DNA of 60,648 bases from an uncultured Pseudomonadales bacterium (lineage in GTDB: Bacteria; Patescibacteriota; Microgenomatia; UBA1400; MFAQ01). The notes beneath the pieces are model-generated. The model saw only the letters and a list, made by a program, of their open reading frames with translations, was not told the origin of the DNA and ran no database searches. Position numbers and translations under genes: made by a program. The stretch spans positions 1 to 60,648 of the forward strand of contig CAYGCQ010000005.1 in assembly GCA_964348455.1 (NCBI GenBank). Reading direction: 5' to 3'. This document shows positions 5,162 to 29,385 of this stretch, one piece after another (the stretch's first letter is position 1; every line of letters begins with the position of its first letter).

Positions 5162-5488
5162 CTAGTGTGTCACAATCATTCTAAAAATCGTGCTCTTATC
5201 ATTCACAATTCTCTCAATCAAAATCATGTCGTTGTCATGATGGGTTACTATGACGGTTTCTTTGTTGACATCCCAAGTAATATTTCTACTTGGTAAAAGA
5301 GGGATTTTCAAAACGCCATTTTTTAATGAAAAACCTCCCTTAATTTTTCTCAGTGACAACCCTCTTGGATCGCTGCTTCTATCACCCTTAAAATATGAAA
5401 CAATTGAAAATTCCTTATCTTTCAAAAAATCAATCAGGTCCTGAGCAACTGTCGCACAATTCTCGGAAGTTACCGTTACATGAGTCAT
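5162..5488 (-). CDS. hypothetical protein
   Basis: 108-aa ORF with a GGAGG-type RBS upstream of the ATG and a terminator hairpin downstream (about 5140-5160). Confidence 0.6.
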   Translation of the reverse strand: MTHVTVTSENCATVAQDLIDFLKDKEFSIVSYFKGDRSSDPRGLSLRKIKGGFSLKNGVLKIPLLPSRNITWDVNKETVIVTHHDNDMILIERIVNDKSTIFRMIVTH

Positions 5489-5558
5489 CTAATCCTCCAT
5501 CTTTAGATAAAAGTACATTTCTATTTTACCCTAAAAACAAAAAGAGTAAAAATATATT

Positions 5559-5942
5559 TTAGTCATGATGAACACCCAAAAGGTGAAGCAAGCCATGGCA
5601 AGCCAAGAACTCAATCTCATCGTCGATCAGTTTATTCCACTGCATCGCCTGTCTCTTTGCTTGGGGATAGCAAACCACAATATCTCCCAAGTTCAAACCT
5701 TCTTCATCTTCAGGCATCTCCGCACCTTCTTCCAGTGGGAATGAGAGGACATCCGTTACTTCATCCCGATTAAAATACTTCTTTTCTAGTTCGCGAATCT
5801 TCCTCTCCCCTACTACACTCAAGGAAATAATTACTTTTCCCTGCAATCCCTGCTCAATAAGAGTTTTCTCTAACCCTGCTCGCACTTGTTTCCGGTTGAA
5901 GCTATATCTACTATCAGCAGAAATATCTAATTTTAGTTTCAT
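5559..5942 (-). CDS. ybeY: endoribonuclease YbeY (rRNA maturation)
   Basis: HGLLHLLGVHHD zinc motif. I start at the internal ATG (MKLKLDIS) because the longer tracked start at 5978 has no RBS and runs to the edge of the 169-nt repeat at 5981. Confidence 0.9.
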   Translation of the reverse strand: MKLKLDISADSRYSFNRKQVRAGLEKTLIEQGLQGKVIISLSVVGERKIRELEKKYFNRDEVTDVLSFPLEEGAEMPEDEEGLNLGDIVVCYPQAKRQAMQWNKLIDDEIEFLACHGLLHLLGVHHD

Positions 5943-11476: not shown

Positions 11477-11518
11477 CCAACTATAAGATTTCTTTGAAAT
11501 TCTATTTATGAGGAGGAC

Positions 11519-16203: not shown

Positions 16204-16232
16204 TTGACATATAGCCACAATAATGGTAAAAT
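16204..16232 (+). promoter_or_regulatory. sigma70-type promoter for the 16309 operon
   Basis: TTGACA, 17-nt spacer, TAAAAT. Confidence 0.65.
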
Positions 16233-16308
16233 TCTCAAGATCTTAATCGAGGTGATCCCCTAAGATCACACTTTGAAATTCTATTCGCTTGAAAAGGAGG
16301 TACGTAAA

Positions 16309-23592: not shown

Positions 23593-25641
23593 CTAATCTT
23601 CCTCAGACTCCAATTCAGCTTCAGAATTTTTAGCCTCCTCTGCGGTCTGAGGTTTCTTCCAGCTTGCCCAAGTACAGTTCGGATAATCTTCACAGCCATA
23701 AAAATCCCGGTTGGTCCTTGTCTTCTTCATCACGACTCTTTTCCCGCATTTTTCACAAACCACATCCTCGACATACACAATATATGGGGCCTTGTGGGCA
23801 CAGTCTGGATATCGATTACAGCTAAGGAACTTACCGAACTTACCGTCCCGGATAACCACTTCACCCTCTTTACACAGAGGACACTTCTCTCCAGTACTTT
23901 CTGTTGGAACTCCTACACGAATACTGTCCTTGTCCACTTTAAGAAGTTTTCTCGAAAAGTCGCCCCAGAATTTACTTAGCATTTCCATCCACTTCACTTT
24001 ACCGGAAGCAATACTATCCAAAGAATCTTCCATCTTAGCCGTAAACTCATACTCCATCTCTCTTGGAAAGTTCTCTATCAAGAAATCAACCACAGCATTA
24101 CCTATAGATGTCGAATAAAATCTCTTTTCTTTTTGCTCAACATACCTTCGATCCAAAATTGTCGAGATAATTGCAGCGTAAGTTGAAGGCCTCCCAATCC
24201 CCTTCTTTTCCAGCTCTTTAATCAGTGAAGCATCATTAAATCTAGCCGGTGGTTGAGTAAATTTTTGAAGAGGTTCAACCTTTTTTTTATTTAATTTATC
24301 ACCTACCTTAACCTCAGGTAGCGCCACAGGTTCATCCTTTCCTTTTGCAAACAACTTTTTCCAACCGTCGAACTTCACCACAATGCCATTTGCGCTAAGT
24401 TCACAGTTTCCAGCTTTTACGACCACTTTTGTATCATCAAAAACAGCTTCCGCCATCTGACAGGCTACCGTTCTTCGCCAGATAAGTGAATACAATTTCT
24501 TTTCATCCATTACCATTTCTTGACCCGTAAATTTCTCCGGAGTAACATCAATATTGGTCGGTCGAACAGCTTCATGAGCCTCTTGCGCCACTACTTTACC
24601 TGCCGCCTTGTACATTCTGGGAGCAGCCGGTAAATACTCCTTTCCGTAAGTCTCACCAATAAATTTCCTCACAGACTCAATCGAGGTTGGAGCCAAGTTA
24701 AACGAATCGGTACGGTGATAAGTGATGTTACCCAGCTCGTAAAGCTTCTGAGCAATGTTCATGGTTCTCTTAGCTGACCACCCCAAAACATTTGCGGCTG
24801 CTTGCTGGAGAGTAGAGGTTTTGAATGGTGCATGAGGCTGAGTCTTTCTTGCCTTTTTTATGATATCTTCCACCACATAATCCGATGTTTCAAGAACTTT
24901 CAGTATTTCTTTTGCTTCATCTCCCGAATGAATTTCAGCCTTTTTCGCTTTAAATTTGGCCAATTCGACCCAGAATTCATCACCACTTTCAGGCTTAACC
25001 AAAACTCGAATCTGCCAGTACTCTACCGGAACAAATTTTTCTATTTCTCTTTCTCTTTCGACAATTAATCTAACCGCCACGCTCTGAACGCGACCAGCTG
25101 ACAGACCTCTTCGAACTTTCTTCCACAGAATTGGAGATAGTTTGTAACCTACTAAACGATCAAGGAATCTTCTGGCTTGCTGAGAGTTCACCATGTTCAT
25201 GTCAATCTCTCGGGGGTTGTCCATGGCTTCCAAAATAGCTTCTTTGGTTATCGAGTTATATGACACACGCTTAAAAATTGGCTGCTTTTTCTTCCCTTTC
25301 AGGGCATCCTTCAGAATTTCCTCTACATGCCAAGCTATTGCTTCTCCTTCACGGTCAGGATCTGAAGCCAAGATTATCTCATCTGCTCTTGCAGCTTCCA
25401 CCTTGAGTCTTTTCACAGTGTCCTCTTTGCGATCCATGATTGCATAAGTCGGAATAAATTCAAACTGATCCGTCTTGAGTTCTTGATTTTTTGAGTTCTT
25501 GATTTCTTTGATCTCTATTCCAATCTTGCTCTTTGGCAAGTCACGAACATGACCCATACTCGCCAGGATCTCAAAATCACCTCCCAAATACTTTGAAAGG
25601 CTTTTTGTCTTCGTTGGTGACTCTACTATTACAAGTTTCAC
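23593..25641 (-). CDS. topA: DNA topoisomerase I
   Basis: Toprim N-terminus (MKLVIVESPTKTK.., DPDREGEAI), active-site region ITYHRTDS, C-terminal CxxC zinc ribbons. Confidence 0.95.
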   Translation of the reverse strand: MKLVIVESPTKTKSLSKYLGGDFEILASMGHVRDLPKSKIGIEIKEIKNSKNQELKTDQFEFIPTYAIMDRKEDTVKRLKVEAARADEIILASDPDREGEAIAWHVEEILKDALKGKKKQPIFKRVSYNSITKEAILEAMDNPREIDMNMVNSQQARRFLDRLVGYKLSPILWKKVRRGLSAGRVQSVAVRLIVEREREIEKFVPVEYWQIRVLVKPESGDEFWVELAKFKAKKAEIHSGDEAKEILKVLETSDYVVEDIIKKARKTQPHAPFKTSTLQQAAANVLGWSAKRTMNIAQKLYELGNITYHRTDSFNLAPTSIESVRKFIGETYGKEYLPAAPRMYKAAGKVVAQEAHEAVRPTNIDVTPEKFTGQEMVMDEKKLYSLIWRRTVACQMAEAVFDDTKVVVKAGNCELSANGIVVKFDGWKKLFAKGKDEPVALPEVKVGDKLNKKKVEPLQKFTQPPARFNDASLIKELEKKGIGRPSTYAAIISTILDRRYVEQKEKRFYSTSIGNAVVDFLIENFPREMEYEFTAKMEDSLDSIASGKVKWMEMLSKFWGDFSRKLLKVDKDSIRVGVPTESTGEKCPLCKEGEVVIRDGKFGKFLSCNRYPDCAHKAPYIVYVEDVVCEKCGKRVVMKKTRTNRDFYGCEDYPNCTWASWKKPQTAEEAKNSEAELESEED

Positions 25642-25742
25642 TTTATAAAATATACACGTTCAAACGGCGTAATGCACCAAACAGGTACAAATTTACGAGC
25701 GTCCGACCTGGAATTGTACTACATCCTTATTTAACCAAGAAA

Positions 25743-25911
25743 TGACGTCCTCCCCGCACAGACTCCGCTTCGCTCCGCATTGTACGGGGTTTCCTGACTG
25801 TATTTCATTTCATGCTACCAGCATATCATCGCCTTCGGCGACGACATGCTCTTCCCATTCATCCCCGCACAAGGTTTGAGTACAAACCCTTGTACGGGGT
25901 TTCCTGGGTAC
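25743..25911 (+). repeat. 169-nt structured repeat, family B, copy 2
   Basis: Identical to copy 3 and 2 mismatches from copy 1. Lies between the terminator of ncRNA-1 and the topA upstream region. Confidence 0.9.
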
Positions 25912-26546
25912 AAAAAACCCGCCTCATAGAGACGGGTTCGTATAGTTAAAAACAGCTGGGGCGGAAGACATTTCCAGAGGGTTTATCCTGAAGAGTTAAT
26001 TCTCCAGAACTTTATTTCCCGTAACTGGAGCATATTACCCGTTTGCCCATGAGAATTGGCCTTATGCTGGCCGACCTCCGTATAAGGAGGCGGTCCCTGC
26101 CACGCAGGGTCCTTTCGCTGTTTAATGAATGGCTTCTAGTATTGCAACACCCTCGACTAGAAACCAAACCAATCTACGTAGGATCCGTCGTGTTGCCGAC
26201 ATTCATATGTAGATGCCGCTTTAGCGGTTGAGAAAAAGCATCATCGTTCCCGGCGCGGCGGGCGGCAGGATGATCAGAGCCGACGATCGGGTCGGCCAAA
26301 GCCCATGTATGGGAAACGACTGGCTTTACTAGGATATCTACATCACTCTCCAGCTTCAAAGGCCGTAGTAGCCTCCACCGAAAAGTCCTAGTGGGGATAT
26401 TCTCATACCCCGTCTAACACTAAGTGAGCTCAGCGCCTGGTTAAACGCGGCTGACGGGGGGTTAATGCCCGGTGCTGGCGCTGCTCGAACTAGGTACAAA
26501 CATATACCCACTTCGAGCAGCGAACTCGCAAAATTTAAGGTTCAAT
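25912..26546 (-). ncRNA. large structured RNA 1 (about 635 nt), unassigned family
   Basis: Bounded by a consensus-like promoter (26553-26581) and the terminator aacccgtctc-tat-gaggcgggtt+T6 (25912-25938). G+C-rich with many long helices and no credible ORF. Confidence 0.7.
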
Positions 26547-26552
26547 GGACAT

Positions 26553-26581
26553 ATATTACACCAAAAAATGTTATTTGTCAA
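26553..26581 (-). promoter_or_regulatory. promoter of large RNA 1
   Basis: Minus strand reads TTGACA, 17-nt spacer, TAATAT. Confidence 0.75.
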
Positions 26582-26642
26582 GTATATAGGCCTTCAAGGA
26601 CTGTCCTCGTAGGCAAAAGATAATACAGTCATAAATTGCCTC

Positions 26643-27234
26643 AAAAAAGGAAAAGGCTCGTACATTTTGTACGAGCCTTTAGTAGACTGTGCTCAGGAGA
26701 ATGAGCAAAAAAATGAAAAATATGATAAATCTCATTCTCCTGATTTCAATATCCCCAATCTTGGGGGTAAATAGTAAAAGGCTGGTGAGGCCAGCGCGAC
26801 CCCTTGACAGACAGGATGTCGACCGGGGGTCAAATTAGCGACGGGTACATGTGGCGCAAACATAGTCCACCTCGCCCCGCACTTGCTTATAATTCCCTTT
26901 TACAGGAACCCTGCTTTCGCAGGCCTCACCTCGAGCATTGGCGAAATTCAAAATGATAGGAGGCGCTTCCCGTAGGAGCGGAGCCTGGTTCATTTCTATT
27001 CGCCGGTTTATGCCGATCAGCGCGCGCCGTGGGAGCCATCATGCCCCCCAGCAAAGACCATCCGCGGTCAGGTGCGCCGTCTCCGTATAGGGAGGCGCGG
27101 GTGCGGAGCCTTGTTGCCGATCGCCACAAAATATAAGCCTTAACCTGTATTTTGTGGCGATCGGAAAACTATTTACTATTTTATTCAAAGATCAATCTCG
27201 CCTGTGGTGAGTATCACCGAACCATTCGAGAATA
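26643..27234 (-). ncRNA. large structured RNA 2 (about 590 nt), unassigned family
   Basis: Promoter at 27240-27268 and terminator ggctcgtaca-aaa-tgtacgagcc followed by a T-rich tract (26643-26680). Begins with the 52-nt module shared with RNA 3. Very G+C-rich core. Confidence 0.7.
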
Positions 27235-27239
27235 TGGCC

Positions 27240-27268
27240 ATTCTATCACCACTTTTGACATTTGTCAA
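27240..27268 (-). promoter_or_regulatory. promoter of large RNA 2
   Basis: Minus strand reads TTGACA, 17-nt spacer, TAGAAT. Confidence 0.75.
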
Positions 27269-27303
27269 GTACTATAAGACTATTCACAAGCTCATAAACC
27301 AAG

Positions 27304-27803
27304 AAAAATCCGCCTCAGTTGAGACGGATTTAATTTAAAGAAAATGCCGCTCCGGGATCGTTGCCCGGAGACGGCAGAAATGTGGGAGATGAATTCCATG
27401 CACTTGCGCGAGTGCATGAGCTAATAAAATCATCTCCTCATCAGGTCGGCTTTAGACGCTAGAGCTTAGCATCTTGATCATCGCCTTCCCATATCCGAAC
27501 TCGCCAGCCCGGAGTAATTTCACCTTCACTCTATCATCTAGGAAACAAAGCTCAAAGTGGCTATGCCCGCAGATAGAGACCTATTAGGTGAGCGTGTCAT
27601 GGCGGGATTAACCCGCAACTGAGTTGCGTCGGCTCAGTCAAACTGTTGCCGGAGCCCAAGGCTACCGGCCAAAGAGAGCGGCCACTATGATCTCGGCCGT
27701 TCAGCTTTCCTTCAATTATAAAGAGAAGCTGAACGACCGAGTTACTAATTGATTCAAAGATCAATCTCGCCTGTGGTGAGTATCACCGAACCATTCGAGA
27801 ATA
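27304..27803 (-). ncRNA. large structured RNA 3 (about 500 nt), unassigned family, paralogue of RNA 2 at the 5' end
   Basis: Promoter at 27809-27837 and terminator atccgtctc-aact-gaggcggat+TTTTT (27304-27329). Same 52-nt 5' module as RNA 2. Confidence 0.7.
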
Positions 27804-27808
27804 CGTAT

Positions 27809-27837
27809 ATAATACCCCATAACACAGAATTTGTCAA
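27809..27837 (-). promoter_or_regulatory. promoter of large RNA 3
   Basis: Minus strand reads TTGACA, 17-nt spacer, TATTAT. Confidence 0.75.
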
Positions 27838-27852
27838 GACCTAGTTTTAGCC

Positions 27853-29385
27853 TTACTTCAACAAGTACGGCAATATCTCGCCTGCTACAGGAGCAGCCAC
27901 TGCACTCCCCTGTCCTCCCTGCTCTATAAGCACTGTTATCACAATCCACTCCTTCACATCAGCTCCCTTCGGCACCACCACTGTCATCCAGGCATTGGGT
28001 AAAGTATCCTTTGCTCCAACCTGGGCCGTTCCGGTTTTACAGTATATTTTTCCTGCATACCCAAACAAAGGAAAAGCAGTCCCACCCGGACTACAAGCTC
28101 CAGCCATACCCTCAAGCACGGTCGCAACATTCTTAGGATTAAACTTCTGATCACCACAAGACACACTCCCTACAATCATCGGATCACAGCTTAAACCACT
28201 CACCGCTTCCGAGGTCATTCGATTTATCTGAATAGGAGTAGTCATAAGGTCCCCTTGACCAATTGAAAGATGATACGTATTACCCAAGAACCACCTCTCC
28301 CCCAAGGTCTTCTCTCTCCAGTAAGGTGTCGGCACAAATCCATCTGACTCACCAGGTAAATCAATCCCGGTCTTTTCGCCCAACCCAAATCTTTTTGTCC
28401 AGGATATCAGTGAATCTGCCCCCAAAGCTTCACCAATTTTATAAAAGAAAATATCGTTACTCCTAGACAAAGCACTTACAACATTAACCATTCCCTCTGT
28501 TCTGCTATATTGATCAAAATACCAGTTACCAAAGCGATACTCCCCTATCTTCAACTCTCCCGTATCTTGAATCTCCGTATTTTTATTAATTTTCCCCTCT
28601 TCCAATGCACCCATCGCAGGAACCAACTTATAAACCGACCCCGGCGCAAAATCTCCAGAAATAGCCCGGTTAAAAAGGGGCTTGCCATTTTCATCAATTA
28701 ACAAACTTTCAATATCTTTGTAGTCTCCACCAAAATCACTTCGCTTACCATTAGCGATAAATAAATTTGGGTCAAAGGAAGGTACACTGGCCAATGCCAA
28801 TACTTCACCATTTACTTTCGCAACTACAATAGCTCCACTTTTGCCTTCCTCCAAGTATTTACTTTTAAGTGCCATGTATGCTTCTTTCTGAAGTTCTAAA
28901 TCAATGTTCGTTTTCAAATTTTTACCAGGTACAGACTCCGTCTGAGTAATTATTTTCCTGGTCTTACCATCAGCAGTTTCCTGAACAACAGCTTCGCCCG
29001 GAAAGCCTACTAAATCATTTTGGTAACTCTTTTCTAAGCCCGCTTTCCCAAGTGTCATGATCGGATTACATCGGGAACAATCTTTTAAATCTTTTTCATT
29101 TGGTTTACCCAGATAACCGACTATAGGTGAAATTGTTTCACCACCCGGGTAAAACCGAATCGTCCTACCCAGATAATCGATGTTCATGGCTAAAGGCTTA
29201 CCATATCTATCGGTAATCACGCCACGAATAGGATCTAACTTTTCTTTCCTAATCATGTTGCCCTGAGCCAAATCCCCAAAATGATCCCCCATGACAGTAG
29301 TCAAGAAAAAAACCCTGGAAAAAACCATGGCCATTACGAGGACCAAGATCATCTTCGACCATGTGTACATTTCACCTTTCCTCAT
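27853..29385 (-). CDS. mrdA: penicillin-binding protein 2 (elongation transpeptidase)
   Basis: Transpeptidase motifs SVYK (SxxK), SRSN (SxN) and KTGTA (KTG). mre gene neighbourhood. Confidence 0.85.
   Translation of the reverse strand: MRKGEMYTWSKMILVLVMAMVFSRVFFLTTVMGDHFGDLAQGNMIRKEKLDPIRGVITDRYGKPLAMNIDYLGRTIRFYPGGETISPIVGYLGKPNEKDLKDCSRCNPIMTLGKAGLEKSYQNDLVGFPGEAVVQETADGKTRKIITQTESVPGKNLKTNIDLELQKEAYMALKSKYLEEGKSGAIVVAKVNGEVLALASVPSFDPNLFIANGKRSDFGGDYKDIESLLIDENGKPLFNRAISGDFAPGSVYKLVPAMGALEEGKINKNTEIQDTGELKIGEYRFGNWYFDQYSRTEGMVNVVSALSRSNDIFFYKIGEALGADSLISWTKRFGLGEKTGIDLPGESDGFVPTPYWREKTLGERWFLGNTYHLSIGQGDLMTTPIQINRMTSEAVSGLSCDPMIVGSVSCGDQKFNPKNVATVLEGMAGACSPGGTAFPLFGYAGKIYCKTGTAQVGAKDTLPNAWMTVVVPKGADVKEWIVITVLIEQGGQGSAVAAPVAGEILPYLLK

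Follow-up and report, generated by a model that had tools for sequence, protein, structure and literature searches.

Why would two RNA genes with unrelated promoters and bodies begin with the same 52 nucleotides? The genes in question lie in a 60,648-nt stretch of DNA (the window, meaning the whole of positions 1 to 60,648 of contig CAYGCQ010000005.1, assembly GCA_964348455.1) from an organism deposited as an uncultured Pseudomonadales bacterium and placed by GTDB in the Patescibacteriota (Microgenomatia; UBA1400; MFAQ01). The interval between mrdA (PBP2; 27853-29385) and topA (23593-25641) holds three promoter-to-terminator units on the minus strand, RNA 3, RNA 2 and RNA 1, and the first two of these start with the 52-mer TATTCTCGAATGGTTCGGTGATACTCACCACAGGCGAGATTGATCTTTGAAT. 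An earlier note, made from the letters alone, had taken the element for a shared handle of RNA 2 and RNA 3. We consider it about an even chance that the 52-mer is a transcribed leader, composed of a 5' hairpin and a boxA-like signal, of two separately promoted large structured noncoding RNA (ncRNA) genes, which would make it similar in appearance to the leader of an rRNA operon.

For comparison, a TopA search identified 22 loci of Candidatus Collierbacteria with 66-83% identity; retrieved loci are numbered here with the prefix L. The window organism (W) itself belongs to this group (Microgenomates, Patescibacteria), and in the TopA tree it is the sister of L006, with support of 98/95.

The repeated module and its boxA-like motif

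The 52-mer was found in two exact copies by a search of the whole window, as the earlier note had claimed, and there is no third copy in the window when up to 3 mismatches are allowed. None of 100 shuffles matched the 52-mer, even with 3 mismatches tolerated. The two copies, their promoters and their parts are as follows.

27752..27803, minus strand: 52-nt leader module, RNA 3 copy (putative recipient in a gene conversion; matched full length, as 27749-27803, by a covariance model of simple leaders)
27183..27234, minus strand: 52-nt leader module, RNA 2 copy (putative donor)
27809..27837, minus strand: RNA 3 promoter, TTGACA-17-TATTAT, 11/12 consensus positions, orthologous to L006 8694-8722
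27240..27268, minus strand: RNA 2 promoter, TTGACA-17-TAGAAT with extended TG, orthologous to the L006b, L021 and L001 promoters
27765..27800, minus strand: 5' hairpin of RNA 3, in the position of boxB; outer UCUCG/CGAGA, UG/CA, inner GGUGA-UAC-UCACC at 27775-27787
27196..27231, minus strand: 5' hairpin, RNA 2 copy; inner hairpin at 27206-27218
27753..27763, minus strand: boxA-like element UGAUCUUUGAA of RNA 3, unpaired in the module fold; a weak UUGAU/AUCAA hairpin encloses CUUUGA in the 116-nt RNA 3 fold
27184..27194, minus strand: boxA-like element UGAUCUUUGAA of RNA 2, unpaired in the module and in the RNA 2 5' region, both by minimum free energy (MFE) and by centroid fold

At both of these near-consensus promoters the -10 hexamer ends 6 nt upstream of the 52-mer, in agreement with the earlier placement of the module about 6-7 nt past the -10 box, at the predicted 5' end of both RNAs. 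From the promoter position we infer that transcription would be expected to start with the A at base 2 of the 52-mer. In the transcript so predicted, the hairpin spans nt 4-39; the motif, at nt 41-51, begins two nucleotides past it.

RNAfold gives the 52-mer the nested helices UCUCG/CGAGA, UG/CA and GGUGA-UAC-UCACC, with a free energy of -12.5 kcal/mol. Taken alone, this stability is unremarkable (z = -1.4; 20 of 200 shuffles fold equally well). The outer stem, UCUCG/CGAGA, is the one that most Collierbacteria leaders have. The 26 nt between the outer arms (AAUGGUUCGGUGAUACUCACCACAGG) replace a GAAA-type loop present in the relatives and form a second small hairpin. The fold proposed earlier, in which CUCG / GGUGA-UAC-UCACC / CGAG helices were nested inside an AUUC..GAAU closing helix, therefore stands as to the nested helices and fails as to the closing one, which neither the MFE nor the centroid fold contains, which the orthologues have not retained, and which would bury the boxA-like stretch.

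The motif of the window, UUGAUCUUUGAAU, has 11 contiguous nucleotides that are identical to the rrn boxA of Bacillus subtilis, AUGAUCUUUGAAA, and the motifs of the relatives (GUUCUUUUAAU, GUUCUUUAAC and GAACUUUAAA) are close to the gamma-proteobacterial GYUCUUUAANA. The B. subtilis rrn transcripts begin with a small hairpin, with the boxA-like AUGAUCUUUGAAA immediately downstream, and BsNusB binds that sequence directly (PMC13753749, 2026). In Escherichia coli boxA is UGCUCUUUAACA, with GYTCTTTAANA as the consensus for gamma-proteobacteria (PMC5725501). The nut-like sites of rrn operons have boxB ahead of boxA; boxA is essential, and the bound leader is fixed next to the RNA exit channel (PMC8632103).

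The strict form of the motif is present in 20 of the 84 first-60-nt stretches behind consensus promoters, as compared with 1.2% of background 60-nt stretches. It is absent in antisense from all 84 and was found only once among the 84 stretches of 60 nt upstream of the promoters. Enrichment in the sense orientation together with near-absence in antisense and upstream argues for an element that belongs to the transcript and is specific to its strand. Measured from the start, the motif lies anywhere between about +3 and +45, depending on the hairpin in between.

The module is followed in both RNAs by a short linker and a long hairpin (P1). The two linkers, CAAUUAGUAA(C) and AAAAUAGUAA(A), are identical at 8 of 10 positions. 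Folding of the long hairpins (RNAfold), and of the whole of RNA 2 (MFE fold, with RNAduplex), gave these elements:

27692..27741, minus strand: RNA 3 long hairpin P1, 16 + 6 bp
27117..27164, minus strand: RNA 2 long hairpin P1, 17 + 4 bp
27172..27181, minus strand: leader strand AAAUAGUAAA of a leader-trailer helix in RNA 2, the same stretch as the linker of the earlier note
26769..26778, minus strand: trailer strand UUUACUAUUU, pairing perfectly with 27172-27181 (10 bp), just before a conserved ACCCCC..GGGG hairpin

Leader and long hairpin together are very stable in both RNAs (z = -6.4 and -6.6). In an alignment of seven sequences, comprising RNA 2 orthologues and neighbouring units, 9 of the 23 P1 pairs show compensatory changes, and the loop is of the GNRA type. 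Long hairpins at similar positions with unrelated sequences had been described in the earlier note; they are real and covarying, but their sequences are not wholly unrelated, as the bases of both read C-G-G/A-U-C-G. Past the long hairpin no similarity between the two RNAs could be detected (local alignment z = -0.4), which confirms that the downstream sequences diverge.

The leader-trailer helix of RNA 2 has an orthologous counterpart with another sequence in L021 (AAUAUGCAU/AUGCAUAUU) and in L022 and L004 (AAUAUACAUU/AAUGUAUAUU). RNAalifold on four orthologues recovered this helix, P1, a second long-range helix and several inner helices, for a total of 100 pairs, 23 of them compensatory; in a whole-RNA alignment that includes the RNA 2 of the window, the interior is unreliable. 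The leader-trailer helices of rRNA precursors provide a comparison case (PMC10250234).

A generic leader and the identity of the two copies

Nearly all of the relatives have, upstream of topA, one to five consensus-promoter units without ORFs. At least 15 Collierbacteria units behind consensus promoters upstream of topA start with (U)AUUCUC-loop-GAGA or with stems that covary with it (UUCUA/UAGAA, UCUCA/UGAGA, AUCCU/AGGAU and ACUC/GAGU), the loops being mostly GAAA-like. The boxA-like motif G-W-W-C-U-U-U-N-A-A follows in single-stranded form 0-3 nt after the leader stem. Genes of the RNA 1 type, other RNA genes and some mRNAs begin with this generic leader as well. A number of third-party metagenome-assembled genomes titled "uncultured Pseudomonadales bacterium" (L001, L005, L007, L011-L014, L016, L019 and L020) are placed firmly inside Collierbacteria by the TopA tree, and these labels look wrong.

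We built a covariance model solely from six simple leaders of other species and ran it in a 450-kb search. It found both 52-mers full length (E = 0.014 and 0.019), and these were its sole matches in the window. MAFFT failed to register the stems of the short leaders, and the leaders were aligned by covariance model instead; in this model-fitted alignment the 4-bp leader stem is paired in 91% of cases and 2 of its 4 pairs are compensatory, which gives modest support. The 52-mer is thus very probably an enlarged form of the generic Collierbacteria leader, with a 26-nt insert in the loop. The idea that the handle is specific to two RNAs does not hold, given that it is a lineage-specific enlargement of a leader also carried by RNA 1-type genes, other RNAs and mRNAs. 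What survives of the earlier reading is that the module is a functional unit separate from the bodies, as it is about 85% identical where the bodies are unalignable; it is not a private handle.

A generic promoter-plus-hairpin pattern had 87 matches in metagenome contigs, nearly all of them unrelated operator-like palindromes. True Collierbacteria leaders among the 87 were limited to L047, L055, L084, L095 and L097, and none of these is beside rRNA. Several phage or rumen/gut contigs (L038 at 5430-5560, L039, L048, L105 and L120) have a consensus promoter followed by the hairpin AUUCUCGUAUGAGAAU, by GAGUUCUUUUGCC and, before an ORF, by a hairpin that looks like a terminator; this is the same hairpin-then-boxA-like order outside the Candidate Phyla Radiation (CPR). 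About a dozen mainly human-gut contigs (L044, L049, L056, L062, L063, L085, L090, L094, L100, L101 and L109) contain a near-identical small RNA of about 95 nt, from promoter to terminator, which starts with (C/U)AUUCUCGAAAGAGAUGUUACCGCGAUGCGG.

The question of why the two window copies are identical can be approached through the same relatives. The RNA 3 promoter is nearly base for base the L006a promoter, with differences only in the spacer, and the RNA 2 promoter is of the type common to L006b, L021 and L001. L006 has kept both promoters nearly unchanged, each of them driving a different simple leader. The enlarged module is found on the RNA 2 orthologues of L021 and L001 with 87% and 85% identity, the first 31 nt being identical in L021, and these orthologous modules differ from the 52-mer of the window at 7-8 positions. 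Within the window the copies agree in all 52 of their 52 nucleotides; the identity breaks off sharply at the start site and again behind boxA, beyond which lies the 8/10 match in the linker.

Since variation between species is tolerated and L006 has two leaders, the 52/52 identity is best read as a product of recent conversion and not of constraint. The probable cause, in our view, is a recent gene conversion that had RNA 2 as donor and RNA 3 as recipient and that postdates the separation from the L006 lineage. RNA 3's own leader would have been overwritten by that of RNA 2, in a tract reaching from the transcription start to just past boxA. The RNA 2 copy is the likely donor because in L021 and L001 it is the RNA 2 orthologues that have this enlarged module. 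The significance that had been attached to perfect conservation is lost accordingly, as orthologues tolerate 7-8 changes and L006 does with two different leaders. A tandem duplication of the whole gene was rejected, the promoters and bodies of RNA 2 and RNA 3 being unrelated, and here the earlier note was right to see no recent whole-gene duplication. The pattern resembles concerted evolution by gene conversion of paralogous RNA genes, as in rRNA operon leaders and spacers, in that a short tract with sharp edges is identical within a genome while orthologues differ; it is unlike rRNA-type paralogues in that the tract is only ~52-62 nt long and the two genes are otherwise unrelated in promoter and body. 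As a caution, a short element that is perfectly identical within a genome may reflect recent homogenisation and need not reflect strict functional constraint.

The insert is distributed patchily over the TopA tree, its carriers W, L021 and L001 belonging to different subclades, which points to repeated loss or to exchange between lineages. In the group of L021, L022, L003 and L004 the leader occurs in three forms, although the bodies of L021 and L022 are highly similar. The leader, as judged from these sequences, is the fast-changing, modular part of the RNA genes.

Two possibilities that would make the repeat trivial are that it is a dispersed mobile element and that it is an assembly artefact; in their favour, Logan contigs break or loop at the 52-mer. 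We give almost no credence to either. In the source metagenome (Logan contigs on the RNA 2 copy) the 52-mer forms its own unitig at depth 41, as compared with ~16 for the flanks, and in three runs this unitig has no flank contexts other than those already known, two on the left and two on the right. Two runs of sample S1 show both contexts, and a run of a second sample, S2, shows one junction. Depth and flank contexts point to two copies and to no dispersed repeat, the contigs showing presence and not absence. A 23-nt core of the insert has no further copy in the window; across ~390 kb of sequence from the loci of relatives, the orthologous RNA 2 start is the only place where this core recurs. 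A genome-contig collection contained no match to an exact 27-mer of the module, and the module pattern had one chance match in viral contigs, inside a coding region. The dispersed mobile repeat that the earlier note named as the finding that would overturn its view is therefore not what is seen here.

The two copies constitute 52-nt direct repeats 569 nt apart (window 27183-27803, minus strand), between which recombination would delete the RNA 3 body and the RNA 2 promoter. One contig of the low-coverage run X2 joins the RNA 2 promoter, the module and the RNA 3 hairpin; this is probably a loop in the assembly graph, and a real rearranged variant is also possible.

Possible roles of the leader

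From the resemblance to boxA we infer a binding of Nus factors and a role in anti-termination. That the motif works as boxA through Nus factors (NusB/S10 loading, anti-termination and co-transcriptional folding) we hold at slightly under even confidence. NusB-S10 would bind the nascent boxA and, with NusG and NusA, RNA polymerase would be converted to a pause- and termination-resistant complex that aids RNA folding. The complex would tether the 5' leader at the RNA exit channel, so that a long, untranslated and strongly folding RNA could be completed. In RNA 2 the leader strand behind boxA would pair, aided by the complex, with a trailer that appears ~400 nt later. The long hairpin would open the RNA body as its first helix, and RNase III may also cleave there.

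The closest known counterpart is the rrn leader, a nut-like boxB-boxA-boxC element served by an anti-termination complex of NusA/B/E/G with S4 and SuhB, and especially the leader of B. subtilis, which has a strong promoter, a small 5' hairpin and an immediately following unpaired boxA (UUGAUCUUUGAAU here, AUGAUCUUUGAAA there; PMC13753749). The hairpin-before-boxA order is shared (PMC8632103), a long untranslated structured RNA follows in both cases, and RNA 2 is closed by a leader-trailer helix (PMC10250234). The leader studied here differs in heading 500-650-nt RNAs of unassigned function, in its 26-nt insert, in having no recognised boxC and in being present on some mRNAs, and the likeness is one of sequence and position only. 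boxA also occurs outside rRNA operons, in the E. coli suhB 5' untranslated region, in CRISPR arrays and in the early regions of lambda and T7, where, as here, it lies early in an untranslated or poorly translated transcript and there makes RNA polymerase resistant to premature termination (PMC5725501; cited in PMC13753749). The boxA of T7 has an RNase III hairpin behind it, much as the long hairpin follows the module. Those cases are from gamma-proteobacteria and their phages and have experiments behind them, whereas ours is from a CPR lineage and is read from the DNA.

Several observations weigh against an anti-termination leader. The 5' ends of both transcripts are predicted positions. The enlarged hairpin is conserved in sequence (31/31 nt between W and L021), which the dispensability of a plain boxB-like element does not explain. 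The linker of RNA 3 has no convincing trailer partner by RNAduplex, and no boxC was identified. The motif is short and A/U-rich, and it resembles the epsilon enhancer of T7 gene 10. It is also found on mRNAs, in 7 of 38 mRNA leaders as compared with 13 of 46 ORF-less units, and the mRNAs that bear it encode small membrane or orphan proteins, with no translation functions; its presence there makes a more general leader role possible and weakens the case for dedication to large RNAs. Searches by tblastn with E. coli NusB, NusG, Rho and RNase III queries gave no matches in the window and ~390 kb of relatives' loci, a result that says little because only small parts of the genomes are covered. The window has no rRNA genes, and no conserved rRNA signatures were found in loci L001-L037.

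One alternative would have the leader act in stability and processing, the 5' hairpin blocking 5'-end-dependent decay of the RNase J/RppH type and the CUUUGAA stretch, the long hairpin or both being cleaved (by an RNase Y/E-like enzyme or RNase III), with no part for Nus factors. Nearly every leader does have its hairpin beginning 3-4 nt from the predicted start, a motif on mRNAs as well as on RNA genes suits a general signal of RNA metabolism, and the perfect 17-22 bp hairpins directly downstream are plausible RNase III substrates. However, a pure stabiliser requires no conserved single-stranded motif, the motif matches boxA, with 11 contiguous nucleotides of the B. subtilis version in the same hairpin-then-boxA order, and RNA 1-type leaders carry the motif without any 5' hairpin. 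As a substitute for anti-termination this role seems to us rather unlikely, though the two could coexist. The recognition handle of the earlier note, in which a dedicated protein or RNA partner would bind the enlarged hairpin (AAUGGUUCGGUGAUACUCACCAC) and mark RNAs of the RNA 2 and RNA 3 types for assembly, localisation or joint regulation, selection keeping the copies alike, would fit an insert conserved in both sequence and structure (with 1 change in L001) next to unalignable bodies. Its patchy occurrence in W, L021 and L001 would also suit an optional add-on module. Yet L006, L004, L022 and L003 make do without the insert on their orthologous RNAs, one pair of the inner stem is broken in the L001 copy, and the source metagenome points to only two copies. 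The neighbouring genes are mrdA and topA, with no linked candidate for the partner, and conversion explains the identity without selection. We regard such a handle as unlikely, and a shade more so than a stabilising role.

Two further explanations would remove the RNA signal or place it in translation. An operator, or an initial transcribed region near the promoter that sets promoter strength or regulation at the level of DNA, would fit the constant position directly behind very strong promoters, and the ATTCTCG..GAGAAT palindromes behind promoters in unrelated bacteria do look operator-like. We consider this improbable in view of the strand specificity of the motif (20 sense and 0 antisense), of the variable distance from the start with an intervening hairpin, and of arms that covary around tolerated loops of 3 to 26 nt, all of which fit RNA pairing and not a protein site of fixed spacing. 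Still less probable is an epsilon-type translational enhancer or ribosome contact in which the motif pairs with 16S rRNA. The motif does resemble UUAACUUUA of the T7 gene 10 enhancer, and on mRNA leaders it lies upstream of strong Shine-Dalgarno sites, but neither a Shine-Dalgarno site nor a start codon lies within 160 nt of where RNA 2 and RNA 3 start, stop codons follow at once, and none of the short internal ORFs has a Pfam match. Four other candidates were rejected: a preQ1-like or other small riboswitch (no Rfam match), a tRNA T-arm mimic (no match), a small leader ORF, AUG GUU CGG UGA (no Shine-Dalgarno site), and a sigma-dependent pause element (inconsistent between the two copies).

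If the anti-termination leader is correct, rRNA-style control by Nus factors and boxA would extend beyond rRNA, to a CPR lineage and to large uncharacterised RNAs that look abundant. The combination of consensus promoter, 5' hairpin, G-W-W-CUUU-N-AA and long hairpin would then provide a signature for finding such RNA genes in CPR bacteria, and the locus would document the swapping of leaders by gene conversion between otherwise unrelated RNA genes. More speculatively, and with considerably less confidence, the RNA genes of the mrdA-topA interval in Collierbacteria could form a new class, transcribed and processed as rRNA operons are but on a miniature scale. Each would have a consensus promoter, a leader of 5' hairpin and boxA, a leader-trailer helix and a structured body that evolves fast, and the leaders would be exchangeable cassettes moved by conversion; the 26-nt insert might be an added binding site for a factor (a ribosomal protein or an anti-termination component, for example) that couples the output of several RNAs.

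The RNA units and neighbouring features

No credible ORF was found between mrdA and topA, and the short ORFs within the RNAs are without a Pfam match. The units and their remaining parts are these:

RNA 3 unit, minus strand: ~500 nt, fold z = -6.6
27301..27375, minus strand: tandem terminator hairpins of RNA 3 with U tracts, at 27337-27375 and 27301-27331
RNA 2 unit, minus strand: ~590 nt, fold z = -9.2
26643..26768, minus strand: RNA 2 3' region, with the ACCCCC..GGGG hairpin at 26753-26768, a long hairpin at 26694-26742 and the terminator at 26643-26680
25911..26581, minus strand: RNA 1 unit, ~640 nt, with promoter 26553-26581, P1 hairpin 26480-26521 and terminator 25911-25936

RNA 1 has a boxA-like UGAACCUUAAAU at 26533-26544, directly at its 5' end and without a 5' hairpin. 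Its start in the window reads UUGAACCUUAAAU; the orthologues in L003, L004 and L022 begin with AGAACUUUGA.

At the gathering threshold Rfam identifies only four tRNAs in the window and no RNA or module family; at E <= 10 it gives nothing credible in 25500-28000 and zero matches in 27165-27240. The possibility raised earlier that the module belongs to an Rfam riboswitch or leader model is accordingly not supported, even at E <= 10. Rfam likewise has no family for the RNA units in the loci of seven relatives. A k-mer search for a core common to all of the RNA bodies found nothing beyond the 3' motif of the RNA 2 family and the terminators. Our literature search turned up no description of such RNAs or leaders in Patescibacteria. 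The RNA genes headed by the module appear to be undescribed, and the module itself appears to be a variation on a known type of element.

These RNAs are comparable to the ornate ncRNAs OLE, GOLLD, ROOL, raiA and HEARO in their size (0.5-0.65 kb), in the strength of their predicted structure (z = -6.6 and -9.2), in their covarying helices and in having a promoter and terminator of their own. They differ from them in having no Rfam covariance match, in having bodies that are unalignable between orthologues at 83% TopA identity, and in the tandem arrangement of several unrelated bodies behind interchangeable leaders.

Between the RNA 2 of the window and its orthologues, only the 5' leader and a 3' motif are conserved in sequence. 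The 3' motif of the RNA 2 family, UUACCCCCA..UGGGGA(A/U)AUUGA, is kept in L001, L003, L021 and L022, and L004 has UUAUCCCCA. Given as UAUUACCCCCA..UGGGGAAAUUGA and followed by a long hairpin and a terminator, it is located at 26753-26768 (minus strand) in the window, ~9660 in L001, ~848 in L003, ~9589 in L021 and ~9197 in L022.

Two mRNA leaders behind consensus promoters elsewhere in the window share the 15-mer CUUUGAAAUUCUAUU, which has a CUUUGAA core, at 11492-11506 and 16271-16285 (both plus strand); at 16204 it follows a 5' hairpin. This 15-mer is absent from all of the loci retrieved.

Directly after mrdA, several Collierbacteria have a conserved small RNA of ~110 nt (AUAGGCUYAGUGAGACUU...CUCUGAGCC plus terminator; L001 8976-9080, L022 8069-8170, L047 ~4730 and L095 ~6630). 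It has no Rfam match in L001 and L022, and RNA 3 takes its place in the window. At the other end of the interval, a 169-nt structured repeat (25743-25911) abuts the RNA 1 terminator, and its 3' 63 nt match L008 74-134 with 86% identity.

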